NCBI GenBank assembly: GCA_026395055.1
Contig: JAPLZK010000002.1
Coordinates: 128,154-192,153, forward strand
From: Candidatus Uhrbacteria bacterium
GTDB taxonomy: Bacteria > Patescibacteriota > Patescibacteriia > UBA9934 > GWF2-40-263
Direction: 5' to 3'
DNA: 64,000 nt
Shown: positions 27,453 to 48,727 of the stretch, one piece after another
Layout: every line of letters begins with the position of its first letter
Numbering within the stretch: position 1 is the stretch's first letter
Position numbers and translations under genes: made by a program
Notes under the pieces: model-generated
Told to the model about the DNA's origin: nothing
Seen by the model: only the letters and a program-made list of their open reading frames with translations
The model's database searches: none

Positions 27453-27947
27453 ATGTTTCTTCAGTCACGTTTTCAGTTTTTGGCTACCTGGGATTCGCTG
27501 AGGCCCAAAGTTCAGCGCGCGTTCCTTGCGGGAAAGATCACGTATGAGGAGGCGCAACAGTTCTCGACACGTTCGTGTCTTGAGAACAAGCGACTCAACG
27601 TACAGGTGGAACTTCTTCACACCAAGCGTCATGAAGTTCTGTTCCGCACGCATGCGGACATCAACAATCCGCACAAAGACATTCAAGCACTCGCCGATGA
27701 ACTTGATCGCATGCCGGAACACGTTGCCATGCAGGTGATGGGTGGCAAGCTCACGCTCGTGCAAGCGCGCTTCGCGGATCGCAACAAGTTTGGCGCGAAA
27801 GGCGTGCAAGACTTGTGCCACACGAACACGCCGACGCTTCCGTATCGCGTGCGCAAATTTGCGTCCGGCACGGAACATTCGGTTCGCAGCTTCGTCCAGG
27901 TTCGTTCGCGCAGTCGCTTTGCGCATCCGTCCTCGCGGCGCAAGTAA
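27453..27947 (+). CDS. Hypothetical basic protein
   Basis: 164-aa ORF with a consensus promoter and RBS. Arg-rich C-terminus, no recognised family, GC-rich. Confidence 0.5.
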   Translation: MFLQSRFQFLATWDSLRPKVQRAFLAGKITYEEAQQFSTRSCLENKRLNVQVELLHTKRHEVLFRTHADINNPHKDIQALADELDRMPEHVAMQVMGGKLTLVQARFADRNKFGAKGVQDLCHTNTPTLPYRVRKFASGTEHSVRSFVQVRSRSRFAHPSSRRK

Positions 27948-31288: not shown

Positions 31289-31296
31289 GTTCAACA

Positions 31297-31328
31297 AAAA
31301 ACCTCCCTGTGCATGTGCAGAGGGAGGC
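31297..31328 (-). terminator. Terminator for nadE (minus strand)
   Basis: Minus strand: cctccctctgcacatgcacagggagg followed by TTTTTT. Confidence 0.6.
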
Positions 31329-31334
31329 GAGAGA

Positions 31335-33323
31335 TTACAGGCTGAGCTCTTCGATCATGGCGAGGACTTCCTCGATCCAGAGCGTGAGCGTGACGTCCGC
31401 AGGCGCGCGCCAATCGCCGCGAGGGCTGAGCGAGACACTTGCAACCTTGGGGCAGTCCGGCAGGTTTTGCCGTTTGAATTGCGCGTTTGAGAACCGAGTC
31501 AGAAACGCGAGGAGCCATTTCAGAATCGTTACGCGATCATATTCGCCCGCGAACGTGAGTTCCGCGAGCCAGGCAATTTTCCGCGGTGCGTAACCGTTTC
31601 GGATCATGTGCCAGAGGAAAAAGTCATGCAGGATGTACGGACCAATGAGATCTTCGGTCAATTGTTCGATCTCACCAGCCTTCTTTGGCTTTGTGAGTTC
31701 GGGCGAGATGGGCGTAGCGAGCACATCAAGGATTGCCTTGCGGATTTCCTTGAAGAGCTCAATGTCCGCCGCATAGCGCACGAGATATTTCACGAGGGTC
31801 TTCGGGATGTCGCCATTGGGGTTGTACATCGACTGTTGATCGCCGTTGTACGTGCACCAACCTTGCGCAATCTCAGAGAGGTCCCCGGTGCCAATCACGA
31901 ACCCGAGGTCCATGAGAATGTGCGTGCGTTCACGCGCTTGGGCGTTTTCGCACTTGAGGCACGTCCAGCACGGCTCGTGTCCAATGCTTCGCAGATGCGT
32001 CGTCACATTTTTCACAATCGAGATGTCTTTCCAGGTGACACCCGTTTGCCGGATGAGCTTCAGCGCATTTTTCTTGGTGCGCTTCGATGTGCCAGCTCCT
32101 GGCATGGTCACAGCAAGGATGCCCTTGCGATCCCAACCGAGTTCATCGAACGCACGAAGAACGAAGAGAAACGCGAGGAGCGAATCGAGGCCGCCCGAGA
32201 TGCCAATGACGACATCGCGGCGACCGGTTCCTTTTTCGAAACTCATGAGCCGACGCTTGAGCGCGGTCACGACGTGAGCATAAATGTCTTCGCACCGTTC
32301 GGTGCGCTTTTTTTCATCCGACGGAACAAACGGGAGTTTGTTCAGGTTGATGCGAGGCGCGGCAGCGATTTTGTCATCGACCGACTCGATCGTACATTCG
32401 ATATGTCGAAACGTTTTCGGATCGACCATGGAGGTCTGACCGAAACTTCCGGACATGAATCGTTCGCGTTCGAGCTTCTCCACGTCCACATCCGTGATGA
32501 GGAGTTGAGGTTCGAACTGAAACGGCTTGGAGCGTATGCGCATGTGACCGTTTTCTGCGATCATCGCGTCGCCGTCAAAGATGACGTCGCCGGAAGATTC
32601 CCACGGACCAGACGAAACATACAGGTACGCGCTCATGCAGTGTGCGGCCTGTTGCGTCACGAGGTCGTAGCGATACGAGCCCTTTCCGATCTCGCTGTTT
32701 GAAGCAGAGAGATTCGTAAGAATCGTCGCGCCCGCGTTCGCTTGGTGCGAACTCGGGGGGATCGGCATCCAGAGATCTTCGCAGATCTCGGTGCCGAGGC
32801 AAAAGATGCGGCGTTTGTTCGAACCGGTTCCGACGAACACATCGATCACATGATCGGTGCCGAAGGGGACACGTTGTCCGCAGAGTTCCACTTCCGATAC
32901 GGTCGCTTCGTACCCAGGCCGAAACCATCGCCCTTCGTAGAAGTGTTTGTAGTTCGGAATGAACGTCTTTGGCGTGATGCAGAGGATTACGCCTTTGTGC
33001 ATCGTGACCGCAACGTTGAACAACTTCTGGTTCACGAGCAGCGGCATGCCGACTTGAATGATCATGTCTGCATCGGCCGTTGTTTTGAGTAGCAAGCTCA
33101 ATCCGTCGATCGCTTTCTCATGGAGAAACGGTTGCAAGAACAGATCGCCGCAGGTGTAGCCCGTGAGCGACAGTTCTGGGAATGTGAGGAGCTGAACATG
33201 TTGATACGCTGCTTCCCCGACAAGCTTCGCCATTTCAAAAACGTTCATGAGCGGATTGGTGACATGCACCATCGGCACAGCAACCGCTGTACGAACAAGT
33301 CCAAACGCATTCTTGGGTTTCAT
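31335..33323 (-). CDS. nadE: Glutamine-dependent NAD+ synthetase (CN-hydrolase plus NAD synthetase domains)
   Basis: N-terminal nitrilase/CN-hydrolase domain, C-terminal PP-loop SGGLDS, 662 aa. RBS aaggaga. Confidence 0.85.
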   Translation of the reverse strand: MKPKNAFGLVRTAVAVPMVHVTNPLMNVFEMAKLVGEAAYQHVQLLTFPELSLTGYTCGDLFLQPFLHEKAIDGLSLLLKTTADADMIIQVGMPLLVNQKLFNVAVTMHKGVILCITPKTFIPNYKHFYEGRWFRPGYEATVSEVELCGQRVPFGTDHVIDVFVGTGSNKRRIFCLGTEICEDLWMPIPPSSHQANAGATILTNLSASNSEIGKGSYRYDLVTQQAAHCMSAYLYVSSGPWESSGDVIFDGDAMIAENGHMRIRSKPFQFEPQLLITDVDVEKLERERFMSGSFGQTSMVDPKTFRHIECTIESVDDKIAAAPRINLNKLPFVPSDEKKRTERCEDIYAHVVTALKRRLMSFEKGTGRRDVVIGISGGLDSLLAFLFVLRAFDELGWDRKGILAVTMPGAGTSKRTKKNALKLIRQTGVTWKDISIVKNVTTHLRSIGHEPCWTCLKCENAQARERTHILMDLGFVIGTGDLSEIAQGWCTYNGDQQSMYNPNGDIPKTLVKYLVRYAADIELFKEIRKAILDVLATPISPELTKPKKAGEIEQLTEDLIGPYILHDFFLWHMIRNGYAPRKIAWLAELTFAGEYDRVTILKWLLAFLTRFSNAQFKRQNLPDCPKVASVSLSPRGDWRAPADVTLTLWIEEVLAMIEELSL

Positions 33324-33373
33324 AGTGTCTCCTTGTCTTCTCGGTTGTAGGGAGCAGAATCAATTCGTCTGAT

Positions 33374-33428
33374 CTTCACGCGCTGACACATGTCGGCGGG
33401 TGGAGAAAAGGGCGATGTAAACATCGCC
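33374..33428. promoter_or_regulatory. Conserved intergenic module, copy A
   Basis: Inverted repeat cttcacgcgctgaca-ca-tgtcggcgggtggag, then aaaag, then hairpin ggcgatgtaaacatcgcc. On the minus strand this reads as hairpin, CUUUUCUCC, then the inverted repeat, upstream of the nadE RBS. Confidence 0.6.
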
Positions 33429-33479
33429 AGATGTTGTAGGGACAGGTCGTGACCTGTCCGATCGAATACGATCATGGGT

Positions 33480-34427
33480 CTAGTACAGAATATCGCCGTT
33501 GTGATCCCAGTTGCGGTAACCGTGACCATCGGGCTTGTGCACGATCGACTTCATGACCGTGCCGCCGTTTGCTTCTTCACAACGCGCGAACGTAACGTTC
33601 ACGCCGTGCGACTTCTCATCGAAAATGCCACCGACCAGGAACACAGGTGTGCCCCAGGGGAGTGGATTGCCGATGCGGACACCGTGCAGTTTTTGCTCGC
33701 CAAATTCGGTGAACTCAGCTTGCAGAGGCGCGATGTCGATCCAGTTCTTTGCGTTCCAGTCCACGACTTCTTGCGTTGCGCGGCCAACCGACTCCGGCCG
33801 CCATACTTCACGAATCACCACCATCTGCACACCGAGATTGCCCAGCACTTTGATGTACTCGAGAATCCCCGCAGCATCTTTCACGCCCGACTTGTTGATG
33901 ACAAGTGATGCACGCACAAGGAGTCCGAGTTCACGACATCGTTTGATAAGATCGGCGGGCGATTTCTTGATCAACATGAGTCCACGATTCTGTTCGAAGT
34001 CGTGGCTTGCAATCGAGAGTGTGATCATGGTGAGACCATAGCTGACCAAAGTGTCGAGCAAATGCTCTTTTGGCATGCCTGCCTGAAAAAGAAATCCGTT
34101 CGTATGCATATCTACAAGCGGAAGATATTTCGCACATTCCGTCACAACGTTCACGAGGTATTCTGGCGATTCCTGACTCGGATCCGCGCGACCCGTGAGA
34201 ATTGCATGCGTCGCGCCTGTGCGCTCAGCGAACCGGAGTCCGACGCGCAGTCGGTGTAGTTCGCATGTCTTCACGTCTTTTTCGTTTTCCATTTCCGTCC
34301 CGGGTGTTGTGCGACTGATGCAGAATTTGCATCCAGCCGTGCAGCGTTCTCGTGTCGAAAGCTGAACGGAAATGCTTTGCGCGCGCATCTGTCCGGAGCC
34401 GTGGGCGATTTGCCGATGTTCTGTCAT
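33480..34427 (-). CDS. Radical SAM protein (activase-like family)
   Basis: CxxxCxxC motif (CTAGCKFC), LTGRADP (LTGGEP-like) and TNG motifs. The start is the second Met (RBS gaaggag), because the longer six-frame ORF reads through the upstream intergenic element. Confidence 0.7.
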   Translation of the reverse strand: MTEHRQIAHGSGQMRAQSISVQLSTRERCTAGCKFCISRTTPGTEMENEKDVKTCELHRLRVGLRFAERTGATHAILTGRADPSQESPEYLVNVVTECAKYLPLVDMHTNGFLFQAGMPKEHLLDTLVSYGLTMITLSIASHDFEQNRGLMLIKKSPADLIKRCRELGLLVRASLVINKSGVKDAAGILEYIKVLGNLGVQMVVIREVWRPESVGRATQEVVDWNAKNWIDIAPLQAEFTEFGEQKLHGVRIGNPLPWGTPVFLVGGIFDEKSHGVNVTFARCEEANGGTVMKSIVHKPDGHGYRNWDHNGDILY

Positions 34428-34445
34428 TTGAATGTACTCCTTCAC

Positions 34446-34501
34446 CTTCACACGTCGACGAAATTGTCGGCGGGTGGAGAAAAGAGGTGAGAGACTCACC
34501 T
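34446..34501. promoter_or_regulatory. Conserved intergenic module, copy B
   Basis: cttcacacgtcgac-gaaatt-gtcggcgggtggag, then aaaag, then hairpin aggtgagagactcacct. Confidence 0.6.
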
Positions 34502-34523
34502 GAGAGAGTTGAACGCTGGAAGA

Positions 34524-35159
34524 TTACATGCCCCCTGTATTCGGCCAGCGTGTTTTGGGCGCGGCTTTCAGACGGCGGATTTCTTCTTTCAGTCGCATGT
34601 TCTGAATGTACAAACGAAATGCGTAGACGCGCAGATCGACGCAGACGTAGGTGTCTGCAAGAAATTCTTCTTCGGACACCCAATGGCGGATGATCTCTTC
34701 GCCCTCACCTGCAAGGCCGAATGTATCGTCGTCATGACCGGAAAGTTGATCGATCGTGATCTGTGCGTAGCAAAGGTGCGTGCGTTCCGGAATGATTCCG
34801 ACCGAGAGCACCATACTCACACCATTGTTCAAAACGATGATGGATTCTTCTGGGATGGTTGCGCCGAGTTCTTCCGAACCTTCCGCGACACACAGTTGCT
34901 TTGGCGAAACGTTTCGATCGAACCGACCTGCGAATGGGGTGATGAGTTCACCGGTTGGGTTCTCATCTGTCTGCACCGCAATGTGTGGCGAGCGAATGAG
35001 AAGCACACGCTTGTTCACGACGTCGTGGAGAATTCCGGCGACCGAGTCTGTGCAACGTACGATGTACCAGGGATTGCCCGTGACGGGGTGTTCCCATTCT
35101 TCGAGTCGCAAGAATTTGTTTTCGTAAAGGACGCGAACGAATGTTGCGGGTTTGGACAT
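34524..35159 (-). CDS. NUDIX hydrolase, ADP-ribose pyrophosphatase-like
   Basis: NUDIX box AGRFDRNVSPKQLCVAEGSEELG aligns with the NudF-type GX5EX7REUXEEXGU motif. RBS aaggag. Confidence 0.6.
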   Translation of the reverse strand: MSKPATFVRVLYENKFLRLEEWEHPVTGNPWYIVRCTDSVAGILHDVVNKRVLLIRSPHIAVQTDENPTGELITPFAGRFDRNVSPKQLCVAEGSEELGATIPEESIIVLNNGVSMVLSVGIIPERTHLCYAQITIDQLSGHDDDTFGLAGEGEEIIRHWVSEEEFLADTYVCVDLRVYAFRLYIQNMRLKEEIRRLKAAPKTRWPNTGGM

Positions 35160-35177
35160 GTGAGGAACTCCTTCTGA

Positions 35178-35233
35178 TCTTCACGCGTCGATAAGATATC
35201 GGCGAGTGGAGAAAAGGCTCGAGCGTTTCGAGC
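35178..35233. promoter_or_regulatory. Conserved intergenic module, copy C
   Basis: cttcacgcgtcgata-ag-tatcggcgagtggag, then aaaag, then hairpin gctcgagcgtttcgagc. Confidence 0.6.
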
Positions 35234-35243
35234 AGGTGTTGTC

Positions 35244-36500
35244 CTAGACCTGGCACGTGACATTCACGTGTGTGTACCGATCATAGTTTGTGAGGCGCTT
35301 CACGCGCGTCACAGAGGATTTGCGTCCGGTCAGTTTCTTTCGGTTGTCCGAGAGTTTGACGGTCGCGCGTCCACAGATGTGCGTGAGCTTGCAGACAATC
35401 GAGAGGGCTTTCAGTCCACGATTGTTTTTATAGGATTGGAATCCCATGTTATTGCCGAGGTTCGTGCCCCAACCAAATGCGAGCTTGATGCGACCACGGA
35501 AGTGCGCGTTCAGTTTCACAATGAGTCGTGCATCGAGACCGTCCGAGAAGACAATCAATTTCGTTTTCGGATCGATGCCGATCGATTCGTAGTACGCGAT
35601 AACTTTCTCCCCGTACGCAAACGGGTCGCCGGAATCGTGACGTGTTCCGATCCACTTCTTTGCAAACGCTTCGAAGTGTTCAAGAAAGTAGTCAGAGCCG
35701 TACGTGTCCGAGAGTGCAATGGAAAGGATTGTGCCATAGAGGGCAAACCATTGTTCAAGGAGAAGTTCGTGCGAGTACATGTACCCGGCCGCGTCATCCT
35801 CTTTGTGGTAGATGCCTTGATACCCCATGTCCATTTCGTGGGCGATGGTGCCGATCGCATCGATACCGAGTTCGATCGCAATCCAAATGTTTGACGTGCC
35901 GGTAAACTGCGCGCCTATTTTTGCGGTGCAGGTTGCGGCAACTTCACGCTGCCATTCGTAACTCCAACGACGACGCGTGCTGAAATCGGAGACGATCGCG
36001 TCCGACTCCATCACAATCTCGATGTTCTCGATCAACTTGTCACGGCCAGAGGCGAGGACTTCTTCTTCGGTGAGACCAAGCTCTGTGCACTTCGCGCGGA
36101 AGTACAGGCGGTTGACCACGTTCATGATGAACGTTTCCCACATCGTGATTGCCGTCCACTTGCCCCGCGCATGAATGGCGAGCTTGCCCTTCACAACGCC
36201 GACATGAATATCGGAGAGCTTGTAGGATTTCAGCCACGTCAGAAATGCAGGCTGCAATTGCCGACCAAGTGTCGGATGATTCCGAAGGCGTTCGATCATC
36301 TCGTCCGTCATCGTCATCTGCTTGATGTGGTCGAGTTCTGCTTGGACTTGCTCGATCGTCATGAAGTCGAGCAGATTCACATCTGTCCGATTCTTGAACG
36401 TGAATCGTCCCCTCCGTTTGCGCTGATGGAGCCAGATGAACTGGAGCATCATCAGTTTGTACTTGTCTGTATCGAGTAAGTTTTTGACGATGTCGAACAT
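35244..36500 (-). CDS. pncB: Nicotinate phosphoribosyltransferase
   Basis: N-terminal LLDTDKYKLMMLQ motif characteristic of NAPRTase, with size (about 420 aa) consistent. Start at MFDIVKN with RBS aaggaga. Confidence 0.75.
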   Translation of the reverse strand: MFDIVKNLLDTDKYKLMMLQFIWLHQRKRRGRFTFKNRTDVNLLDFMTIEQVQAELDHIKQMTMTDEMIERLRNHPTLGRQLQPAFLTWLKSYKLSDIHVGVVKGKLAIHARGKWTAITMWETFIMNVVNRLYFRAKCTELGLTEEEVLASGRDKLIENIEIVMESDAIVSDFSTRRRWSYEWQREVAATCTAKIGAQFTGTSNIWIAIELGIDAIGTIAHEMDMGYQGIYHKEDDAAGYMYSHELLLEQWFALYGTILSIALSDTYGSDYFLEHFEAFAKKWIGTRHDSGDPFAYGEKVIAYYESIGIDPKTKLIVFSDGLDARLIVKLNAHFRGRIKLAFGWGTNLGNNMGFQSYKNNRGLKALSIVCKLTHICGRATVKLSDNRKKLTGRKSSVTRVKRLTNYDRYTHVNVTCQV

Positions 36501-36656
36501 CGTGTTCTCCTTGTGCAAAAAGGACAGACCCACGAACGTCTTTCGTTCGTGAGAGAAATGTGCCCTCGAGCGCACATGCGCTCGAGAAAACGTTTCTTGG
36601 TCTTTCGAGAAAAATATCCTCGGGGCTGAATGTTCAGCCCCGGGAAGAAGAAGGAA

Positions 36657-38045
36657 TTACAGTTCGCTGATGCGACGCTGCAAATCTGTTTCTGGAAAGA
36701 ACGCGAGTTCTGCGGTTGCGGTTGTGCTTCTGCGAATGGACATGGAGTTCAGTTCGCCGAGTGGAACGCCGTCGCAGAAACCACGCATCGGTCGCTTGTC
36801 TTTGCTCATCGCTTCGAATCGAATGTGTGTATCGATCGGAAGCGGTTCGTTTTTCCAGTGGTGGGAACATACGCAGCTTCCAACGAGTTGGAGCATCTGC
36901 GTGCCAGGAATGAGACGCGAGCCACCCATGCGGTATGCGTATCCTGTTGATCCAGCCGCAGTTGAAACGAGCATGACGTCTGACATGATGGGATCGAATT
37001 TCACTTCGCCATTCATGAGGACACGTGTCCAAATGGTTTGTCCGCTCAGGCGATCAACCCATGCGTCGTTGAACGCGAGCATGGATGCGTGTTCGCCTGT
37101 GACGGATTCTGCTTCCACGTAGAGCAGGGACTCTGTGTACGTTTTGAGTTCACGACACGCGCGGAGTTTTTCCACGATCGTCGCTTCGTCAAAGTCGTTG
37201 AGCAGAAATCCTTTTGTTCCTCGGTTGAGGCCGAAGAACGGAACGTGATCGCGCCAGAGGCGACGAATGGTGTGAAGCATGAAGCCGTCGCCGCCGATGA
37301 CGACAACGCAGTTGTGTTGTCCTGGATCTGTTTGAAACGCGGATGCGAGTTTTGCCGCAATGCTCACCGCGTTTGCGTTTTGATCATTCGCCACAATGAG
37401 TGGCTGCATGGGTTCCGCAAATTTTGCTGGTCCACGCAGAACGCGTCCTGTGAACAACTGGTGTCGTTCCATGAACGCCGCAACAGCTGGCGACACAAGA
37501 GTTTCGATTGATTGGTGCTTGAAGATCCGTTCGCGAATTTCCGAACTGGATCCACGAAGGGTTGGTTCGATGATCGTGTGGTGCGGCGGAAGATCTTCCG
37601 GCACACACTTCACTCCATAGCGCATGTGCACCATGAAATGCAACTCGTTCCAAACTTCCTGTCCACGAAACCACGTTCGATGAATTTCCGATTGACCACG
37701 CGCGCCGCCGGCAATGATGTCGGCGCCGATGACGTGGCAAATTTCGTGATTCGGATAGAGGGCACGATAACGCTGATCGATATCGTACGAACGGGTGAAC
37801 ACCGAATGCTCAAGATCCGTAAGATCAATTTCGACACGCGGAATGCGGCCGAACGCGAGATCACACAGGGCTGCGCGAAACGCGAGCGAAAGATCATTGG
37901 TCGTTTCTTTGTCCGGTCGTGGTCCACACGGAATGACGATGAGACGATCATCAGGACCGAGCCTGTTCGCAAGTTTGCGAATGATCGCTTCGTGATGTAA
38001 TCCCGGAGGGCAGAAACTTCCACCGTACAGAAAAATCGTTGGCAT
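36657..38045 (-). CDS. Bifunctional fusion: NaMN/NMN adenylyltransferase (NadD-like) plus NAD kinase (NadK)
   Basis: N-terminal GGSFCPPGLHH (cytidylyltransferase (H/T)xGH-type motif). C-terminal NAD kinase motifs GGDGFML and DVMLVSTAAGSTGYAYRMGGSRL. Start at MPTIFLYGG with RBS gaaggag. Confidence 0.7.
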   Translation of the reverse strand: MPTIFLYGGSFCPPGLHHEAIIRKLANRLGPDDRLIVIPCGPRPDKETTNDLSLAFRAALCDLAFGRIPRVEIDLTDLEHSVFTRSYDIDQRYRALYPNHEICHVIGADIIAGGARGQSEIHRTWFRGQEVWNELHFMVHMRYGVKCVPEDLPPHHTIIEPTLRGSSSEIRERIFKHQSIETLVSPAVAAFMERHQLFTGRVLRGPAKFAEPMQPLIVANDQNANAVSIAAKLASAFQTDPGQHNCVVVIGGDGFMLHTIRRLWRDHVPFFGLNRGTKGFLLNDFDEATIVEKLRACRELKTYTESLLYVEAESVTGEHASMLAFNDAWVDRLSGQTIWTRVLMNGEVKFDPIMSDVMLVSTAAGSTGYAYRMGGSRLIPGTQMLQLVGSCVCSHHWKNEPLPIDTHIRFEAMSKDKRPMRGFCDGVPLGELNSMSIRRSTTATAELAFFPETDLQRRISEL

Positions 38046-38060
38046 GGTGTACTCCTTCAG

Positions 38061-38120
38061 CTTCAGCGTCCCAGGAGTGGGGCGCTTAAGAAAAGGGCAG
38101 AGTTCGAGAACTCCGCGAGA
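38061..38120. promoter_or_regulatory. Degenerate copy D of the intergenic module
   Basis: cttcagcgtcccaggagtggggcgcttaagaaaaggg followed by hairpin gcagagttcgagaactccgc. On the minus strand this is a hairpin plus CCCUUUUCUU. Confidence 0.45.
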
Positions 38121-38133
38121 GAATGAACGAATC

Positions 38134-38904
38134 CTAGTTGCGTGCGATGAAGCCGAACGATTGCAGGGCTTGTCGCAGTTCAATCGGATCATCTTTGTTG
38201 ATGACGAACAGGTTGCCGGCGCTTGGCGTGAGCGTTCCTGCTTCGAGCTCGGCGGCAATCTCGTCCGCGGCACGACCGGATCCCTTGATCACGTACGTGG
38301 GCCAGCCGTTCTTGACCGAGCGCATGACTTCGTCGCGCGTGATTGGTCCGCCGTTCCATGCGATTACGCCGACCTGGTTGAATCCAGCATGTGCTTTCAG
38401 GTTGGACATGAGTTCGAAGGCAGCATTCAGATCGCCGTCCCAGTCGAGCTTGCCTTCTGCACCATCTTGCACAAGCAGAATGGCGTTCATGGCCGGATTC
38501 GGCGCAGTGCCGTAATCGTCGAGCGTCAGATGTGATTCGCCCGTGAGACGCAAGACGTCTGTACGCGGGGCGGAGCCGAGTGCAATGCATTCGGGATTTG
38601 ATGCCGCGATGAAACCGGGAATGTCTGTGACCATGGGGTCAAGAACAATGTCTTTGTCGAACTGACGCGTGCCACCCGACCAGATCATTCCCTTGAAGCC
38701 TTCGAGGGCCATCAGGAAAAAGCCGATCATGGCACGCTTGTCATCACTATTCATTCCTTTGCATCCGCCGCTGATGCGCAGACACACTTTCTCTCCCGCA
38801 CGCGTTGCCATGAGGGCGAACGTTGCGGGGATTTGATTGCGCTTGTCTTGCACGAGCAGGTAGGTCTTGCCGCCAGGCGCGGTCACGGTTCTTGCTGTTG
38901 TCAT
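38134..38904 (-). CDS. LOG/SLOG-like Rossmann-fold protein, paralog 1
   Basis: LOG-like glycine motifs SGGCKGM and WSGGTRQ (GGGxxG-like) and KGSGRAADE (PGGxGTxEE-like). Paralogous to the neighbouring 257-aa ORF. Confidence 0.5.
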   Translation of the reverse strand: MTTARTVTAPGGKTYLLVQDKRNQIPATFALMATRAGEKVCLRISGGCKGMNSDDKRAMIGFFLMALEGFKGMIWSGGTRQFDKDIVLDPMVTDIPGFIAASNPECIALGSAPRTDVLRLTGESHLTLDDYGTAPNPAMNAILLVQDGAEGKLDWDGDLNAAFELMSNLKAHAGFNQVGVIAWNGGPITRDEVMRSVKNGWPTYVIKGSGRAADEIAAELEAGTLTPSAGNLFVINKDDPIELRQALQSFGFIARN

Positions 38905-38931
38905 CACTGCCTTTACGAACTTCCTAATTTT

Positions 38932-39705
38932 CTACGCCTGTGATTTCACGAGACGCAGTTTCTCCGGGGGAAGGATCCCGAAAGAAATGAGATGTTGCCT
39001 GATGTCGTCAGAATCTTTTTCTGCGACACGGACGTTTGGGTGTGACTCGAGAAACGCCTTGTTGCTCGCATACACATCCGCGTTGCGACCGCTGCCCCTG
39101 ATGAGCAGAACTGGCCAACCGCGTTTTGCGGTTGCGAGGATCTCGCGTTCCGTCACACCACCGCCGTTGTAGACGATGAGCAGTGATTTGAAATCGGCGA
39201 ACTCACGCAGGTCTTTTATGATCTGCAGACATTCTTCGAACTCCGCGTCCCAAATGGCCGGCTGATCCGGCGACACTTGAACCAGCAGACACATATCTTG
39301 GTTTGGATGAATGATCGTACGGTAGGTATCGACGTCACTCTCCGAAACCACGAGTCCGTGTTCCGTGATCTTGATGTCAGAAGTTCTTGGAACGACTCCA
39401 AGGGAAACCATGTTCGGACAGACCTCGCGTATGTGCGACGGAATCTCAGTGATCCCGGGCACAATGTTCGACGCATCTTGTTTCTCGATCATGCGCGTGC
39501 CACCAAAGAGCATGGCGCCCGCAAATCCAGAGAACGCTTCTGCGAAGAGTGAAAGAAAATCTCGCGCATCTTCCGCAGACATGTATCCGCACCCGCCCGT
39601 GAGCCGTACAACAACTCGATTGCGAGCAGTCGTGAGTTTGAGGGCGATCTTTACCGACTGGTCTCCTTCGTTCTTCACGAATAAGGAGGGAATGATGGTA
39701 GACAT
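38932..39705 (-). CDS. LOG/SLOG-like Rossmann-fold protein, paralog 2
   Basis: Same architecture and length as paralog 1 (RLTGGCGYM, FGGTRM, RGSGRNAD). RBS aaggaga. Confidence 0.5.
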   Translation of the reverse strand: MSTIIPSLFVKNEGDQSVKIALKLTTARNRVVVRLTGGCGYMSAEDARDFLSLFAEAFSGFAGAMLFGGTRMIEKQDASNIVPGITEIPSHIREVCPNMVSLGVVPRTSDIKITEHGLVVSESDVDTYRTIIHPNQDMCLLVQVSPDQPAIWDAEFEECLQIIKDLREFADFKSLLIVYNGGGVTEREILATAKRGWPVLLIRGSGRNADVYASNKAFLESHPNVRVAEKDSDDIRQHLISFGILPPEKLRLVKSQA

Positions 39706-39726
39706 CGTGTCTCCTTGTGGTGTGAG

Positions 39727-39800
39727 CCTTCGATTTCAGAACCTCATTGTTGGGGTGCTGAAGAAAAGGGCTCTACATTTCGTTTTGCTGATTTGTATGT
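39727..39800. promoter_or_regulatory. Degenerate copy E of the intergenic module, also the pncA terminator region
   Basis: cttcgatttcagaacctcattgttggggtgctgaagaaaaggg followed by hairpin gctctacat...atggagagc. Confidence 0.45.
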
Positions 39801-39843
39801 GCAAGGTGAAATGGAGAGCGGGGGAGAGAAAGAGCGAATTGCC

Positions 39844-40602
39844 TTAGGTGTGGATCTGATCCGAGTTGATGCACTTCACGCCGCGAGCGATGAGGCGCGC
39901 TTCCATGAAGGCAATCGAGCCGGGGTAGTCGCCATCCGGAGGCAAACCAACGGAGCGCGTGCAGTCGCGGACGATGTAGGACTCGAAGCCTTCGAGTGCC
40001 GCGTCTTCGGCTGTGAAGCCAACGCAGAAGTCGAACGCGAGACCGACGATGAACACGCGCTTGATGCCGCGTTCCTTCAGGATGCGACCAAGACCAGTCG
40101 GCATCCAAAGCGTGTCGCGAAACGCGCTGTAGCTGTCGACGCGCGGATCCGTTCCCTTCGGGAAGTGCAGAATGAACGCGTCGTCGAGATCGCGCAGGCC
40201 GTCGAAGAGACGAATCTCGTTTGTGGTCATATCGGCATGTTCGTCCCAGAGGAGCGTTTCATGCCGATTGAGGCGCATGAGGTAGGCGATCAAATCTTCG
40301 CGGGTGAAGAGTGCATGCTTCGCAATCTTGACCTTGTTTTGCAGAACTTCCGTGATGGTGAGCGGACCGCGGGCCCGTTTCACGTAGGAGGTTCGGTAGT
40401 TGATGTGACCCCTCGGGTGCGCATCGAAGACGTTGAAACGTTGGCGGCGCTTGAACTTCAGAACGAGTTCCCGGAGGACCCCGATGATATCAAGCGCGCC
40501 AGGCACCGGCAGTCCACCATCTGGACCAAATGCATTTGTCGCATCAACGACGATGACCGCATCGCCTTTGCCGATCTTGATCAAACCTTCGAAATTCAGC
40601 AT
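39844..40602 (-). CDS. pncA: Nicotinamidase/pyrazinamidase (isochorismatase family)
   Basis: Isochorismatase-fold motifs VVDATNAF, FDAHP.GH and the catalytic Cys context GLAFDFCV. Confidence 0.7.
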   Translation of the reverse strand: MLNFEGLIKIGKGDAVIVVDATNAFGPDGGLPVPGALDIIGVLRELVLKFKRRQRFNVFDAHPRGHINYRTSYVKRARGPLTITEVLQNKVKIAKHALFTREDLIAYLMRLNRHETLLWDEHADMTTNEIRLFDGLRDLDDAFILHFPKGTDPRVDSYSAFRDTLWMPTGLGRILKERGIKRVFIVGLAFDFCVGFTAEDAALEGFESYIVRDCTRSVGLPPDGDYPGSIAFMEARLIARGVKCINSDQIHT

Positions 40603-40607
40603 GACTC

Positions 40608-40635
40608 ACCTCAATCCCCACGGTGGGGAGGTTCA
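40608..40635. repeat. G-rich palindromic mini-element at the pncA 5' end
   Basis: cctcaatcccca-cgg-tggggaggtt. May supply the SD on the minus strand (ggaggtgagtcATG). Confidence 0.5.
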
Positions 40636-40817
40636 ACGAACAGAATCTGCGGAAAACACTGTGTCATCTGCAGATGAATTCATTGAAAAAACGCTTTTTG
40701 AGAACCGGGGAGAATACCTGATTTTGGCCATTTTGTCAATGGTTTTCGGTTGGTTTACACGAACGAACCCTGAGCGGCCCTTTTCGAGGCTTTTTCGTTG
40801 GAAGGTGCTGTAAATTA

Positions 40818-40844
40818 AAGTAAGTGTAGACTATACACTTACTT
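40818..40844. promoter_or_regulatory. Perfect 11-bp-arm inverted repeat, candidate operator
   Basis: AAGTAAGTGTA-gacta-TACACTTACTT between the nrtR 3' end and the pncA upstream region. Shares the GTGTA...TACAC core with the palindrome at 41582-41596. Confidence 0.45.
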
Positions 40845-40854
40845 ATGTCAAGAC

Positions 40855-40897
40855 CCAATAAAAACGCACCAATCTTTCGATTTGGTGCGTTTGGTTT
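40855..40897. terminator. Bidirectional Rho-independent terminator (for nrtR on the minus strand)
   Basis: acgcaccaa-tctttcgat-ttggtgcgt flanked by A-runs and T-runs. Confidence 0.65.
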
Positions 40898-40908
40898 TGT
40901 CTCATTTG

Positions 40909-41574
40909 TTACATAATTTCCACGTATTCCAGCTTTCGGTGCTTGAACTTATAGAGCTCAGCGGGGCGGTTGGCTTCGCCGCCACGTTTCTTTCCAACAG
41001 GAACGATGAGATCCAGAGCCAAAATGCGCTTGCGGAAGTTGCGTTTATCTACGGTTGTATCAAGAATAATCTCGTAAACACGCTGTAAATCTGTGAGAGT
41101 GAATTCGTCAGGGAGCAAGCTCCAGGCGATGTTTGTGTATTGTAATCGGCTTTTGAGGCGCGTAATGGCTTCCTTGGCAATGATTTTGTGATCATAAGCC
41201 AATTCGGGAAGTTTTTTTACGGGCCACCATTTCACGTCCGCATACTTGTCTGACGTTTTGAGCTGAACGGTGTCAGAGATGAGGGCGAATGACGCAACGG
41301 AAATGACACGTTCTAATTGATCGCGATCAATTGCATCAAATGTTTTCAGTTGTTCAAGGTAGATATTTGAAACTCCTGTCTGTTCTTTTAAAATGCGAAT
41401 GGCGGTCTGTTCTGTGGTTTCTGCGTCCTCAACACGTCCGCCAGGGAAGGCCCAAAGTCCTGTGTAAGGTTTCTTTTTCATTTGGATGAGAAGTGCACAA
41501 AGTTGGTCATCTTTTACGGTAAAGATGACGGTATCAACCGCAACGACGATAGATTGTTTTGTGGATGGGGACAT
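40909..41574 (-). CDS. nrtR: NrtR-family transcriptional regulator (NUDIX-like domain plus C-terminal winged-helix)
   Basis: N-terminal NUDIX box (GGRVEDAETTEQTAIRILKEQTGV) and a C-terminal about 90-aa wHTH-like region. This architecture is diagnostic of NrtR regulators of NAD metabolism. Confidence 0.65.
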   Translation of the reverse strand: MSPSTKQSIVVAVDTVIFTVKDDQLCALLIQMKKKPYTGLWAFPGGRVEDAETTEQTAIRILKEQTGVSNIYLEQLKTFDAIDRDQLERVISVASFALISDTVQLKTSDKYADVKWWPVKKLPELAYDHKIIAKEAITRLKSRLQYTNIAWSLLPDEFTLTDLQRVYEIILDTTVDKRNFRKRILALDLIVPVGKKRGGEANRPAELYKFKHRKLEYVEIM

Positions 41575-41581
41575 AAGTGTT

Positions 41582-41596
41582 TGTGTAAATTACACA
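41582..41596. promoter_or_regulatory. 7-1-7 palindrome immediately upstream of the nrtR start, candidate autoregulatory operator
   Basis: TGTGTAA-a-TTACACA located 8-22 nt upstream of the nrtR ATG. Confidence 0.45.
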
Positions 41597-41697
41597 CAAA
41601 GTATCAGAGAATGAACGCTTCGTCAAGTTTACCTGCCGGCAGGTAGGTGGAAAAAAGCGCGCCTGAGACGTATACTGTGCGCACTAACTGAAATTGT

Positions 41698-45406: not shown

Positions 45407-48400
45407 GTGTCTGACAAAATTTTTGTCCTTCCGTTTGATGCGTACGTGGACGAGTTTCTTGAACTCGTGCGCCGAAACCAGGTTGTCATTCTCGCGGCCG
45501 AAACCGGCGCGGGAAAGTCCACCAAAGCACCACTCGCTCTGCTGAACGCAGGGCTCGGTGGCAACAAGCTGATTGGGGTTTCCGAACCTCGACGTCCGGC
45601 GGCAACGCTGCTCGCAAAGTGGGTGGCAGAACTGCACGGAACCGAATTCGGGACCGTGGTCGGCTATCAGATTGGTCAGGACAAGCAGATCTCGAAAGAG
45701 TCTGAGCTCGTGTTCCTGACCGAAGGTGTTCTCTTGAACCAGCTCCATTCGGATCCGCTTCTTTCGCACTACGGCATCATCTGCCTCGACGAGGTGCATG
45801 AGCGTGGCGTGAATCAAGATCTCCTGATGGCACTCGTGAAGAGCGTGCTCCCGAAGCGGCCCGACCTCAAGGTTGTGGTCATGTCGGCCACGATCGACAC
45901 AGATAAGTTCGCGAAGTACTTCGGCAATGCTCCTGTGCTCACGGTCCCCGGTCGGGTTTTCCCGGTTGCGGTTCGCTACGCAGAAGACACGCCGAATGCG
46001 GGCCGCATGGTGGATGCGATGATTGAGAAGATTCTAGAGATTTTGCACGGCAACGAGCCGGGCGACATCCTCGCGTTCCTTCCGGATCAAGCGAGCATCA
46101 CGCAGGTCGTGAGCAAGCTCGAAAAGGAAAAGGAGCGCGAGCTCTCGCGTTATCGGTTCCTGCCGCTTTACGGCTCGCAGGCGCCCGATGATCAGGCGGA
46201 AGTGTTCAAGGTGGATGGTCGCCGTCGCATCATTGTGGCGACGAACATCGCGGAAACCTCGCTCACGATTGACGGCGTCCGACATGTGGTCGACTCCGGG
46301 CAAATTAAGGCGACGGTTTACGTCGACGCCAACATGTCCGCGCTGCAAGTGACCGAGCATTCGCAAGCTGGTTGCAATCAGCGCAAGGGACGTGCGGGTC
46401 GGACGCAAAATGGTATTTGCCATCGTCTGTTCTGCGAGGCAGATTTCGAAAGCCGCGTGGCGTTCACGAAGCCGGAGATCTTGAGCATGTCGCTCGATCA
46501 GGTTCTCTTGGATCTGCGTTGCCTGAAGTACACCCTCGCGGAAATTCTCAGCCTCGACCTCATGGACGCTCCGAAGACCCAGCAATGGAAAGACGCTGAA
46601 AAGCGTCTGAAGATGCTTGGTGCGATCGGTGCGGATGGTGCGGTCACCGAGGATGGTGTGCGGATGAAGCGGTTCCACGTGGAGCCGATGATTGGCCGCA
46701 TGATCCTTGAAGGCGAGAAGCACGGATGTTTGGAAGAAGTGATCACGATCAGTGCGTGCCTTGCCGGTACGCGTCCGATCTTCATTCGTCCGAAAGATCG
46801 GTATGCAGAAGCGGACCGCGCGAAAAAAGGATTTGATGATCCGAACTCGGATCTGCTCACCCTTCTCAAGGTGTGGCGGCAATGGGATCGGACGGACGGA
46901 GATTATCGGTGGGCGAGAGAGAATTTCCTTTCTTCGAGGGCTCTCAGTCAGGTGGATCGCATGCGCGACCAGCTGATGCGGACGCTCGAGCGGGAAGGGG
47001 TTCCGTATTCGTCTTCGAAAGATGAACTTGGTCTTCGCAAGGCTGTTGCGGCCGGGCTCATCGTCAATATTGCCCAGAAGTCTGGGCGATTCAACTATTC
47101 CTGGAATGATCGCTCGACGTTTGTCTCCCCCGGCTCCGCGCTGTTTGGAGATAACCCGCCGCAAATGCTTGTGTGTGTGAAGGCGATGGAAACCACGAAC
47201 GATCGTGGAACCAAAACCTACATGCATGGATGCCATGCGATCGAACCGAGTTGGCTTTCGGAGCTCGTGCCTGCAGAGGCGTGCGCGATGGAAGTGAATT
47301 TGGAAAAAGATTATGTGACGCGCGAACTTCAGCTGAAGTATCGGCGGACCTGGAACGGAATCGAACTCGAGCATAAAACCTTGGAGACGATTCCAGAAGC
47401 ACTCATTCCGTTCATTGCCGCTTCGGTGACGAAGCAGCTTGTCGACGGGTATGGGTACTTCTGTGACAATGCGACGCAGCTCGTAAAGCTGTGGAAGCAG
47501 ATTGTTCCGTCTGTGCCGTGGAGTGTCTTTGGGGAAGAGCGTACCAAGCGTATTCAGCCGTTTGCGGAAACGTTTGCAAAAGCGATTGCGAAAAAGATTG
47601 CGGGCTTGCCCACGATCCGACTCGTTCTCGCCGCAATCGAATCCGTCATCGCGGAAGATGTTCTGATGGGTGACGCGCTCAAGGCGTATCAGATCGAGCA
47701 CGAAGCAGAAATGCGGCGTGACCGTGAGATGATCGCAGAGCGCGCTCGTCGTGAAGAAGAAACTCGTAAGGCGAACGAAAAAGCGCAAGCTGAATTCGCT
47801 CCGCTGCGCGAAGAGTTCGCGGCACTCGATGCTCGTGTGCGTGCCCTCGGGTACGTGTTCGACTATTCGGGCGGTACGCGCATGGATTTCCGCGACAATA
47901 ATCAGCGTGAGATCGCTCGCAGAAACGTGAACAGCACTTACGCGTATGATCTCTCGACGGCGCGGTACGAACTGCAACAGTACACGGCGATCGTCGAACG
48001 GCTGGAGCGTGCCAACGCCCCGAAGTTTGATCTGACCCGCGTCATCTACGCACAAGTACGCGCAGTCATGCCGGTTTGTCCTGTCTGTGGCGGAGCGTGG
48101 AATGATTCCTTCGTTTGTACGCAAGTGCACTCGCCGGATCAGGTCATCGCAAAGCATGGTCAGAATGACTGGCTCATCGGTGAGTTCAAGACGGATCGGG
48201 ACGAGACGGTTGCGAGCGTAAGCATCGAACGTCGTCGCACTTCCGTGAAGCTCGAATTTGAAGTCGGTGAGAATCAGGCTTGGTCGTACAAGGCGTTCAA
48301 GTTTATCGCGTTCAATCCGAACATCATTGTTCTGTCGCCGGCCTTGGTTGCGGATCGCGAGATCATCCTCCTCTGGCTTGCGGAACTCGAAGAAGCAAAG

Positions 48401-48727
48401 CGAGCTCTCGAAGCCGAACTCGCATTTGTTGCAGACCTCAAGCGGAAGGTAACGACCGGTGAGGTGATTTGTCTCAAGTTTCGGGATCGTGGCAATGGCA
48501 CCATGGTCGCAGATTACAAGCGCGAGCTTGTCGAAGCGCCCTACGGTGACGATCTGTCTCGGTATCCGAGCTCGGGAGATTCCTGGTGGTGTCATGTGAT
48601 TCCCGGGAGCGGCCCGACTAAAATCGCCCTTTACCGCAAGGTGGGGGTGACCAAGGTCGATGTCGAAAAAGTCCTCAAGGACGGCCTCGACATGTTCCCG
48701 GGCCTCCCAAGCCAGCTCCTGCAGTAG
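45407..48727 (+). CDS. hrpA: DEAH-box ATP-dependent helicase HrpA-like with a long C-terminal extension
   Basis: Motifs AETGAGKST (motif I), DEVHER (motif II), TNIAETSLT and QRKGRAGR (motif VI), plus HA2/OB-like regions. About 450 extra C-terminal residues with a coiled-coil and CPVCGG. Confidence 0.75.
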   Translation: MSDKIFVLPFDAYVDEFLELVRRNQVVILAAETGAGKSTKAPLALLNAGLGGNKLIGVSEPRRPAATLLAKWVAELHGTEFGTVVGYQIGQDKQISKESELVFLTEGVLLNQLHSDPLLSHYGIICLDEVHERGVNQDLLMALVKSVLPKRPDLKVVVMSATIDTDKFAKYFGNAPVLTVPGRVFPVAVRYAEDTPNAGRMVDAMIEKILEILHGNEPGDILAFLPDQASITQVVSKLEKEKERELSRYRFLPLYGSQAPDDQAEVFKVDGRRRIIVATNIAETSLTIDGVRHVVDSGQIKATVYVDANMSALQVTEHSQAGCNQRKGRAGRTQNGICHRLFCEADFESRVAFTKPEILSMSLDQVLLDLRCLKYTLAEILSLDLMDAPKTQQWKDAEKRLKMLGAIGADGAVTEDGVRMKRFHVEPMIGRMILEGEKHGCLEEVITISACLAGTRPIFIRPKDRYAEADRAKKGFDDPNSDLLTLLKVWRQWDRTDGDYRWARENFLSSRALSQVDRMRDQLMRTLEREGVPYSSSKDELGLRKAVAAGLIVNIAQKSGRFNYSWNDRSTFVSPGSALFGDNPPQMLVCVKAMETTNDRGTKTYMHGCHAIEPSWLSELVPAEACAMEVNLEKDYVTRELQLKYRRTWNGIELEHKTLETIPEALIPFIAASVTKQLVDGYGYFCDNATQLVKLWKQIVPSVPWSVFGEERTKRIQPFAETFAKAIAKKIAGLPTIRLVLAAIESVIAEDVLMGDALKAYQIEHEAEMRRDREMIAERARREEETRKANEKAQAEFAPLREEFAALDARVRALGYVFDYSGGTRMDFRDNNQREIARRNVNSTYAYDLSTARYELQQYTAIVERLERANAPKFDLTRVIYAQVRAVMPVCPVCGGAWNDSFVCTQVHSPDQVIAKHGQNDWLIGEFKTDRDETVASVSIERRRTSVKLEFEVGENQAWSYKAFKFIAFNPNIIVLSPALVADREIILLWLAELEEAKRALEAELAFVADLKRKVTTGEVICLKFRDRGNGTMVADYKRELVEAPYGDDLSRYPSSGDSWWCHVIPGSGPTKIALYRKVGVTKVDVEKVLKDGLDMFPGLPSQLLQ

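Follow-up and report, generated by a model that had tools for sequence, protein, structure and literature searches.

The stretch analysed here, a 64,000-nt segment of contig JAPLZK010000002.1 from Candidatus Uhrbacteria (hereafter the window), contains nine consecutive genes on the minus strand (positions 31335-41574), identified from a listing of open reading frames (ORFs) and from hidden Markov model (HMM) scans with Pfam and NCBIfam/TIGRFAM models, with start codons refined afterwards. In the order of transcription these are nrtR, pncA, SLOG-B, SLOG-A, a nadD-nadK fusion, pncB, a Nudix gene, a radical S-adenosylmethionine (SAM) gene and nadE. A preliminary description of the window had assigned the same functions, in agreement with the Pfam and NCBIfam scans of each protein, but had counted ten genes; they are indeed consecutive and on a single strand, although there are only nine ORFs, and the number rises to ten only when the two domains of the nadD-nadK fusion are taken separately. 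We consider it likely, from sequence and gene order, that the locus is a chromosomal, long-resident operon for Preiss-Handler salvage of NAD(P), controlled by NrtR and equipped with three conserved accessory functions that would handle NAD breakdown products. Loci retrieved for comparison carry L-numbers; L007 and L009 are from related Uhrbacteria, L003 is from a DPANN archaeon and L056 is a phage-like contig.

Five enzyme activities of the pathway are encoded in the operon, leading from nicotinamide to nicotinate (PncA), nicotinate mononucleotide (NaMN; PncB), nicotinate adenine dinucleotide (NaAD; NadD), NAD (NadE) and NADP (NadK). PncB and NadE were recognised at equivalog level: pncB (35244-36500, minus strand, as for all other genes, promoters, hairpins and RNA elements located in this cluster) codes for a nicotinate phosphoribosyltransferase (TIGR01514, 310 bits, cutoff 269.55; Pfam NAPRTase, 174 bits) and nadE (31335-33323) for a glutamine-dependent NAD synthetase (NF002730, 723.6 bits, cutoff 473). 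PncA, NadD and NadK scored below the equivalog cutoffs and were assigned by domain matches and family motifs. Gene pncA (39844-40602) codes for a nicotinamidase-like protein of the isochorismatase fold (Pfam Isochorismatase, 49.4 bits; NF008623, 75 bits, cutoff 174) in which the motifs DATNAF, DAHPRGH, FPKG and FDFCV can be read, and the nadD-nadK fusion (36657-38045), whose true start after refinement is the ATG at 38045, joins a NaMN adenylyltransferase to an NAD kinase (Pfam CTP_transf_like, NAD_kinase and NAD_kinase_C; TIGR00482, 75.5 bits; NF003406, 137 bits). The closest homologs are from Candidatus Uhrbacteria, with 85-87% identity, which places the host among the CPR/Patescibacteria. 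The nadD-nadK fusion, of which we know of no earlier description, although no search aimed at one was made, recurs across lineages of the Candidate Phyla Radiation (CPR; L007, L010, L012, L014, L019, L021, L022, L041, L123, L125 and L126), and the HxGH motif of its NadD part is altered (GGSFCPPGLHH).

Between pncB and the radical-SAM gene lies a gene for a divergent Nudix protein (34524-35159) of the ADP-sugar pyrophosphatase type, assigned from TIGR00052 (24.8 bits, cutoff 79.55) and an alignment of orthologs; there was no match to Pfam NUDIX. The orthologs keep AGRFD..(K/A)EAxEExG, with E93, E96, E97 and G99 invariant. With respect to the Nudix box, GX5EX7REUXEEXGU, the E-x2-EE-x-G part is thus invariant, whereas Lys or Ala takes the place of the Arg and the first Glu is missing. 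As judged from the alignment, the metal-binding core of the box is intact. On balance, this protein would be expected to cleave ADP-ribose or a related ADP-sugar to AMP and ribose-5-phosphate.

Gene nrtR (40909-41574) codes for a protein with the architecture of the NrtR family, consisting of an N-terminal Nudix-like domain (Pfam NUDIX, 64.6 bits, residues 12-132) and a C-terminal winged-helix domain (NrtR_WHD, 88.2 bits, residues 152-210). Its Nudix box has degenerated to RILKEQTGV, which is what one would expect of an effector domain without catalytic activity. The gene is its own transcription unit, preceded by a promoter-like region read from the sequence (41598-41626; TTGACG, a spacer of ca. 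16 nt, ATACTT), whose hexamers are kept in L007 and L009 while the spacer varies, and followed by an intrinsic terminator-like hairpin with a T-run (40860-40892), also read from the sequence and kept in L007. Directly downstream of the −10 hexamer there is a predicted operator, O1 (TTTGTGTGTAATTTACACAAACA; 41578-41600), which is the only match in the window to GTGT-N7-ACAC (0.10 expected by chance), is identical in L007 and L009, and is the predicted site for autoregulation of nrtR. The end of the operator palindrome, 41596, is the position at which the preliminary description had placed the end of the locus.

The other eight genes, from pncA to nadE, form an operon headed by promoter P1 (40823-40851; TTGACA-17-TACACT, 10/12 in a promoter scan), which is overlapped by a second predicted operator, O2 (AAGTAAGTGTA-tagtc-TACACTTACTT; 40818-40844). 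O2 is an exact palindrome; in L007 and L009 its arms are invariant and its centre differs, as do the promoter spacers, and identical arms around a varying centre are the pattern expected of an operator bound by a dimer. Both operators were located by eye and by pattern search, since an inverted-repeat tool at default settings missed them. The motif GTGT-N7-ACAC also adjoins nrtR in seven further CPR loci (L005, L011, L012, L021, L032, L041 and L042) and is otherwise rare, with 29 matches in 721 kb, almost all of them adjacent to nrtR or to genes of NAD metabolism. The NrtR consensus is a 21-bp palindrome with the core GT-N7-AC, and ADP-ribose releases NrtR from DNA (PMC2330246). The domain matches and the two palindromes with this core bear out the earlier suggestion of an NrtR-type regulator with palindromic operators, and by analogy NrtR would repress the operon and ADP-ribose would induce it. 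Downstream of P1 there is a second promoter-like site, P2 (40711-40739; TTGACA-17-TATTCT, also 10/12), followed by a structured leader of ca. 90 nt with two hairpins ahead of pncA (40603-40691), nearly identical in L007 and L009, which could add a layer of control beside NrtR. A terminator-like hairpin with a T-run closes the operon (31295-31327).

Genes SLOG-B (38932-39705), the upstream member of the pair, and SLOG-A (38134-38907), the downstream one, each code for a protein of 257 aa. Both proteins scored above the gathering score of Pfam family LSDAT_prok (PF18171; 38.1 and 33.1 bits, the latter for SLOG-B, against 25.4), with a SLOG (Rossmann-like) fold. They are ca. 30% identical to each other, and ca. 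26 residues are invariant in both, including R44, GGC47-49, M52, GGTR, T94, LG..PR, Q147, W156, NGG..T..E193, GSGR212 and D215. In a profile search of the PDB, TRPM2 and TRPM8 ranked first, the closest solved relative being the ADP-ribose-binding domain of TRPM2; SLOG-A shows the fold of the TRPM2 MHR1/2 domain, together with the motifs NGGxxTxxE and GSGRxAD. In LOG enzymes the catalytic Glu is part of the motif PGGxGTxxE, and E193 of the SLOG pair, which aligns with Thr or Ser of the TRPM channels, would correspond to this catalytic residue.

In every locus with both genes on the retrieved sequence, SLOG-B was immediately upstream of SLOG-A, separated from it by a short gap. More than 40 loci, in CPR bacteria and in one DPANN archaeon, have this order, and its constancy suggests that the two proteins form an obligate heteromer. 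The family comprises 593 representatives (E<=1e-3) among 1.84 billion, nearly all of them stand-alone; in two rare proteins, P0406 (801 aa) and P0443 (705 aa), a SLOG-B-like domain lies C-terminal to a long N-terminal region without recognisable domains. In around 11 of some 20 distinct contexts of the pair, NAD genes or NrtR lie at most 10 kb away (the window, L003, L005, the L007 type, L009, L024, L032, L040, L041, L042 and L049), and the chance that a random gene lies that near to them in a genome of ca. 1 Mb is about 2-3%. In L042 the pair comes straight after the regulator gene, in the order operator, nrtR, SLOG-B, SLOG-A. Scanning the neighbours of the isolated pairs did not reveal any recurrent alternative partner. 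A tblastn search of GenBank phages with SLOG-A and a search of IMG/VR with the SLOG profile retrieved nothing. LSDAT proteins of the SLOG superfamily are reportedly associated with conflict or defence effectors such as SLATT; here there was no PADLOC match, and the neighbours were NAD genes or miscellaneous housekeeping genes.

We tentatively propose that the SLOG-B/A pair cleaves the N-glycosidic bond of a pyridine or adenine nucleotide (nicotinamide mononucleotide, NMN; NaMN; NAD; or a derivative of ADP-ribose), which would free the base and ribose phosphate for PncA and PncB. The sampled clusters with the pair lack the nucleoside hydrolase and deoxyribosyltransferase-like genes of other clusters, a distribution compatible with the displacement of one N-glycosidase by another. 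The pair might instead be a non-catalytic sensor of ADP-ribose or NAD, acting allosterically on an operon enzyme or on another target in the way that MHR1/2 gates TRPM2, although we regard this as rather unlikely. Its best matches in both sequence and structure are ligand-binding TRPM domains, with which it has the GSGRxAD motif in common, and in about half of the loci it lies away from NAD genes, as a general sensor might; but the LOG-like Glu is invariant in both paralogs, unlike in TRPM, and both retain the full set of conserved residues, which would be unexpected for a scaffold or a pseudoenzyme subunit. Furthermore, N-glycosidases (nucleoside hydrolases and a deoxyribosyltransferase-like/Nudix fusion) are part of the variable shell of the sister clusters without the pair, which looks like one enzyme taking the place of another.

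The radical-SAM enzyme (33480-34427), designated type 1, belongs to the superfamily by its CX3CX2C motif (CTAGCKFC) and core fold, with a Pfam score of 28.3 bits that is slightly under the gathering score of 29.5. The type-1 family includes more than 150 CPR proteins with 47-87% identity, in which C30, C34 and C37 (numbering of alignment A1) are invariant, only one further Cys is near-invariant outside the CX3CX2C motif, and a distinctive C-terminal motif, KSIVHKPDGHGYRNWD, is present. The fold is nearest to GDGT-MAS, MoaA, viperin and BlsE, and no curated family covers the protein (21-49 bits against cutoffs of 180-284). MoaA was discarded because of its score (TIGR02666, 21 bits, cutoff 284) and the absence of the C-terminal motif for a second [4Fe-4S] cluster. 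Viperin was also discarded, as the window protein did not match NF038283 or the PADLOC pVip models and its type-2 relatives (see below) reached 19-33 bits against a cutoff of 180, and QueE and NrdG-type activases were ruled out on score and motifs.

A scan with the type-1 profile, covering one genome per species, found 17 loci, all from CPR and all 17 in NAD clusters. These contained nadE (13 loci), pncB (13), nadD and/or nadK (14) and a Nudix gene (10), surrounded by a variable shell with a histidine phosphatase (8, commonly just ahead of the radical-SAM gene), a PRPP (phosphoribosyl pyrophosphate)-synthetase-like gene (7), an ADP-ribosylglycohydrolase (7), nucleoside hydrolases (3) and a deoxyribosyltransferase-like/Nudix fusion (2). 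Sister clusters with such a shell for handling ADP-ribose or ribose are L013, L015-L023, L041, L123 and L125, and their shell includes a conserved protein of ca. 340 aa without a Pfam match (fam27). Neither the radical-SAM nor the SLOG proteins thus turned out to belong to an unrelated housekeeping family, and many genomes have conserved their NAD neighbourhood, so that the outcomes which the preliminary description had named as refuting it were not observed; the genes added in the sister clusters fit the earlier proposal of an expanded module for handling NAD and ADP-ribose.

In the DPANN locus L003 the radical-SAM protein is related to type 1 distantly but over its full length (HHalign probability 99%, 24% identity); this form, designated type 2, has 1,427 homologs. 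The position between pncB and nadE is occupied by type 2 in L003 and in CPR loci L055, L123 and L126, and in L125 pncB and the radical-SAM gene are followed by an ADP-ribosylglycohydrolase, a histidine phosphatase and nadE. Type-2 contexts unrelated to NAD were also found (L057 and L124). In L125 (462-2252) and L126 (341-2148) a conserved pair of proteins, one of ca. 263 aa and vWA-like by eye (TLIxTDGAD) and the other of ca. 230-255 aa, is encoded directly upstream of pncA, in the place of nrtR in the window; these were checked and are not SLOG proteins.

The phage-like contig L056 has a type-2 gene near nadE, a PRPP-synthetase-like gene and pncB, and a search with the type-2 alignment identified full-length type-2 proteins in ca. 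43 viral contigs of IMG/VR, many of them from jumbo phages; the type-1 profile or a single type-2 protein as query retrieved nothing from this database. In ca. 13 of these ca. 43 loci the type-2 gene adjoins pncB, in some with overlapping reading frames, and these loci also have pncA, a NadD-type adenylyltransferase, an NH3-dependent NadE, a Nudix/NrtR-like gene or an NAD-dependent DNA ligase. The set of pncA, pncB, nadD and nadE beside the type-2 gene varies among the phage contigs (L067-L069, L073-L076, L086 and L094 from IMG/VR, and L056), with a Nudix/NrtR-like gene in L068 and L069 and an NAD-dependent DNA ligase in L069. Taken together, the CPR, DPANN and phage contexts thus show the radical-SAM enzyme linked to the nicotinate branch in bacteria, in archaea and in phages alike, and its genetic tie to pncB and nadE is the best-supported fact about this enzyme. 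PADLOC did not match the radical-SAM, SLOG or Nudix proteins to any defence system; only the Nudix domain of NrtR matched one candidate model, weakly.

That the radical-SAM enzyme, the SLOG pair and the Nudix protein act together, making from NAD or ADP-ribose a new nucleotide that serves as a cofactor, signal or toxin rather than recycling breakdown products, seems to us improbable. In such a scheme the radical-SAM enzyme would modify the ribose in the manner of MoaA, viperin or BlsE, the SLOG pair would bind or trim the product, and the salvage genes would supply the NAD consumed. The accessory genes, however, share a transcript under predicted NrtR control with housekeeping salvage genes, on the core chromosome of reduced genomes, and they are not accompanied by an effector, transporter or immunity gene, nor by a PADLOC match. 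Moreover, the SLOG pair is absent from most radical-SAM clusters, and in L041 it is present but there is no radical-SAM gene; this independent occurrence argues against one joint pathway.

It is more doubtful still that the radical-SAM enzyme supplies the substrate of PncB, by producing nicotinate anaerobically from a non-pyridine or modified precursor, or by providing a phosphoribosyl donor. The cluster would then be a de novo or semi-de novo route to NAD for CPR, DPANN and phages, which are taken to be without NadA, NadB and NadC. The tightest and most widespread linkage is certainly that of the radical-SAM gene with pncB: their frames overlap in phage loci L073-L076, in the order radical-SAM gene, pncB, nadD, and pncB is followed by the radical-SAM gene in L003, L055, L123, L125 and L126. 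A phage would also benefit from a source of precursor independent of the host pool. Nevertheless, this chemistry has no known precedent, the protein has a single cluster motif and no set of Cys for an auxiliary cluster, and pncA, which salvages nicotinamide, is often in the same clusters. Salvage, with accessory handling of NAD breakdown products, thus remains our preferred interpretation of the operon.

The preliminary description had also considered the locus a GC-rich island that suggested horizontal acquisition. The GC content is 0.532 in positions 31335-41574 and 0.467 in the rest of the window, and the GC content at third codon positions (GC3) is 0.57-0.68 for the eight genes from nadE to pncA, compared to ca. 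0.32-0.50 for most other genes in the window; the GC-rich block is therefore confirmed for nadE to pncA, but it does not include nrtR (GC3 0.48). The GC-rich coding strand has long antisense ORFs as by-products (e.g., 39715-40677 and 31608-32702). Genes equally rich in GC3 occur elsewhere in the window, such as those for an HrpA-like helicase (45407-48727, 0.66) and a 164-aa ORF (27453-27947, 0.65), and ORF 2796-4112 (0.61). The helicase and the 164-aa ORF both have syntenic counterparts in related genomes, from which we conclude that the genome is compositionally patchy in general. In most of the CPR loci examined, the GC3 of the NAD cluster exceeds that of its surroundings and follows the host, from 0.37 to 0.93; this was the case relative to their own flanks in L003, L009-L012, L014, L016, L018 and L021, from hosts with 34-68% GC. 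The recurrence of high GC3 in the NAD cluster across CPR genomes indicates a lasting property of the cluster and not a sign of recent arrival, and, since the ribosomal-protein genes in the window have low GC3, it does not reflect the usual codon bias of highly expressed genes.

The locus is flanked on one side by genes for LeuRS, ComEC, and Glu-racemase-like, Trp-repressor-like and GNAT proteins, and on the other by genes for a MurA-like protein, an M50 peptidase, the HrpA-like helicase, EF-G, EF-Tu, L3, L2 and S3. The same core genes enclose it in L007 and L009, to whose counterparts the proteins of the locus are 84-92% identical, within the range of the flanking proteins (30-95%). The 64-kb window contains no tRNA gene at all. 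A scan of flanking genes revealed neither an integrase nor a transposase; no search was made for direct repeats on the flanks. Of the features of a recently acquired island, the locus thus has an atypical composition, but it shows no tRNA border and, among the scanned neighbours, no mobility gene, and it is present at the same site in relatives. A recent arrival is therefore not supported, and, as judged from synteny, the operon is long-resident at its present position. Over long times, though, the comparison of loci indicates that the module is mosaic and mobile: L009 and L024 have a different type of pncB, and L014, L015 and L019 a different type of nadE, while L126 resembles the window in gene order and has Trp-repressor-like and GNAT genes in its vicinity, yet lacks the SLOG pair and carries the other type of radical-SAM gene. 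It is consequently very improbable that the locus is a recently acquired mobile or defence-related element, such as a phage-derived cassette that replenishes NAD against host defences, as the raised GC3 of eight contiguous genes, the sister radical-SAM type beside Preiss-Handler genes in phages and the mosaic of pncB, nadE and radical-SAM types among relatives are outweighed by the conserved position, the identities to L007 and L009, the absence of tRNA and, among the scanned neighbours, mobility genes, the dependence of cluster GC3 on the host, and the failure to find type-1 radical-SAM or SLOG relatives in IMG/VR or GenBank phages or any PADLOC defence match.

Three intercistronic gaps of the operon contain copies of an RNA motif, between pncB and the Nudix gene (35165-35238; covariance model R1, 68.9 bits), between the Nudix and radical-SAM genes (34432-34506; 76.5 bits, fold z-score −2.4), where it partly covers the ribosome binding site, and between the radical-SAM gene and nadE (33360-33432; 61.6 bits); a weak fourth copy is at 38047-38117. 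The motif comprises a hairpin whose sequence differs in every copy, with changes that are fully compensatory, followed by the invariant CUUUUCUCCAC, by a second stem in which UCUCCAC pairs with GUGAAG and which has a further hairpin inside it, and by the ribosome binding site. Other R1 copies were found only in coding-strand intercistronic gaps of NAD operons, in L007, L008, L009, L011, L022 and L023 and, weakly, in L010 and L014. Over 16 copies, 93.7% of the cells pair and 6 of 12 pairs change on both sides, values that were reached by 0 of 500 shuffles, and slid controls pair at 26-51%. Searches of Rfam with the whole window at the gathering threshold, and with 31.0-42.5 kb at E<=1, identified no riboswitch or other known RNA; neither the pncA leader nor the intercistronic motif thus belongs to a known family. 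The motif could function in attenuation, in processing or as a translational operator, and might adjust the operon to a related ligand or protein.

These elements could work together as follows. NAD consumers would release ADP-ribose, which would lift NrtR off O1 and O2 and induce the operon, and PncA, PncB, NadD, NadE and NadK would convert nicotinamide or nicotinate back to NAD(P). The Nudix protein would probably return ribose-5-phosphate and AMP from ADP-ribose, whereas the SLOG-B/A heteromer, built on the ADP-ribose-binding fold of TRPM2, would perhaps cleave an N-glycosidic bond or, somewhat less likely, sense ADP-ribose or NAD. The radical-SAM enzyme, with its MoaA/viperin-like core, would act by radical chemistry on a nucleotide or a precursor feeding into the segment from PncB to NadE or accompanying it. 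We suggest, with some reserve, that the radical-SAM enzyme (types 1 and 2) and the obligate SLOG-B/A pair are new enzymatic components of NAD metabolism. The former would catalyse a new reaction within or close to the nicotinate branch, either the supply of a precursor or the modification or repair of a pyridine nucleotide, common to CPR, DPANN and phages, and the latter would be a catalytically competent prokaryotic relative of the ADP-ribose-binding domain of TRPM2, cleaving or sensing NAD breakdown products.

Several observations weigh against our preferred interpretation of the operon. The window NrtR reached only 141.9 bits with NF050029, against an equivalog cutoff of 400, and is thus, by its sequence, a divergent member of the family and not an equivalog of the curated set, and O1 is an imperfect palindrome. 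For the SLOG pair, NGGxxTxxE is only similar to the LOG motif, there was no match to Pfam LOG (Lysine_decarbox), and its nearest structural relatives, the TRPM MHR1/2 domains, are ligand binders and not enzymes. In roughly half of its loci the SLOG pair lies among unrelated genes (L001, L030, L034, L036 and L052-L054), and around two thirds of the phage radical-SAM genes are among replication genes and not NAD genes; neither component is therefore strictly tied to NAD genes. In addition, the canonical Preiss-Handler route requires no radical chemistry, and to our knowledge there is no precedent for a radical-SAM enzyme in it.

Few parts of core metabolism are considered to be mapped as fully as NAD salvage, and reconstructions of NrtR regulons exist for many bacteria. 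The association of a radical-SAM enzyme with pncB and nadE persists in genomes as different as those of ultra-small bacteria, ultra-small archaea and phages, which implies that the pathway maps are missing a step, a repair reaction or a precursor route, and it offers a concrete protein for testing. The SLOG pair is a soluble bacterial relative of the human TRPM2 ADP-ribose module in a putatively ADP-ribose-controlled operon, and bears on the origin of this channel domain. To phage biology, these loci contribute further NAD-supply modules with a possible role against NAD-depleting defences; with respect to CPR and DPANN, they bear on cofactor upkeep in organisms without de novo pathways.

In comparison with known systems, the NrtR-controlled NAD salvage operon is itself known, and what is new are its conserved, uncharacterised extra members, whose link to NAD metabolism, either for the radical-SAM enzyme or for the SLOG pair, is not reported in the searchable literature. 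As in the NrtR regulons described by Rodionov et al. (2008; PMC2330246), palindromes of ca. 21 bp with the GT-N7-AC core lie over the promoters of NAD genes and nrtR, and common targets are pncA, pncB, nadD and nadE, with prs-type genes here in the sister clusters; the window differs in its CPR host, the nadD-nadK fusion and the repeated intercistronic RNA motif. Neither that study nor the later searchable NrtR literature mentions a radical-SAM or SLOG/LSDAT member of a regulon. Unlike the MHR1/2 region of TRPM2 (LSDAT_euk), the SLOG proteins of the window are stand-alone, of ca. 257 aa and duplicated into what would be an obligate B/A pair, keep E193, absent from TRPM, and are linked to NAD salvage and not to a channel or a conflict-system effector. 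They also differ from the LOG/PpnN phosphoribohydrolases, as they lack a Pfam LOG match, have NGGxxTxxE instead of PGGxGTxxE and show no Arg motif of the MHxRK type. The radical-SAM enzyme is distinguished from MoaA, viperin and BlsE by the lack of the second-cluster Cys motif of MoaA and by a conserved C-terminal domain of its own, with KSIVHKPDGHGYRNWD in type 1 and DGR..YDWQ in type 2. The phage NAD pathways described so far reportedly use NAMPT/NMNAT or Adps/Namat, and NARP1-like chemistry, which combines a PRPP-synthetase-like enzyme with a phosphoribosyltransferase, was discarded for the window because it has no PRPP-synthetase-like gene. No radical-SAM partner is mentioned in the searchable literature on phage NAD systems. 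Phage pncA, pncB, nadD and nadE beside type-2 radical-SAM genes resemble the known phage NAD modules (NadV/NatV, NARP1, NARP2 and the jumbo-phage systems; PMC11662467) in providing a self-contained NAD supply, whereas the cluster in the window is cellular and NrtR-regulated.

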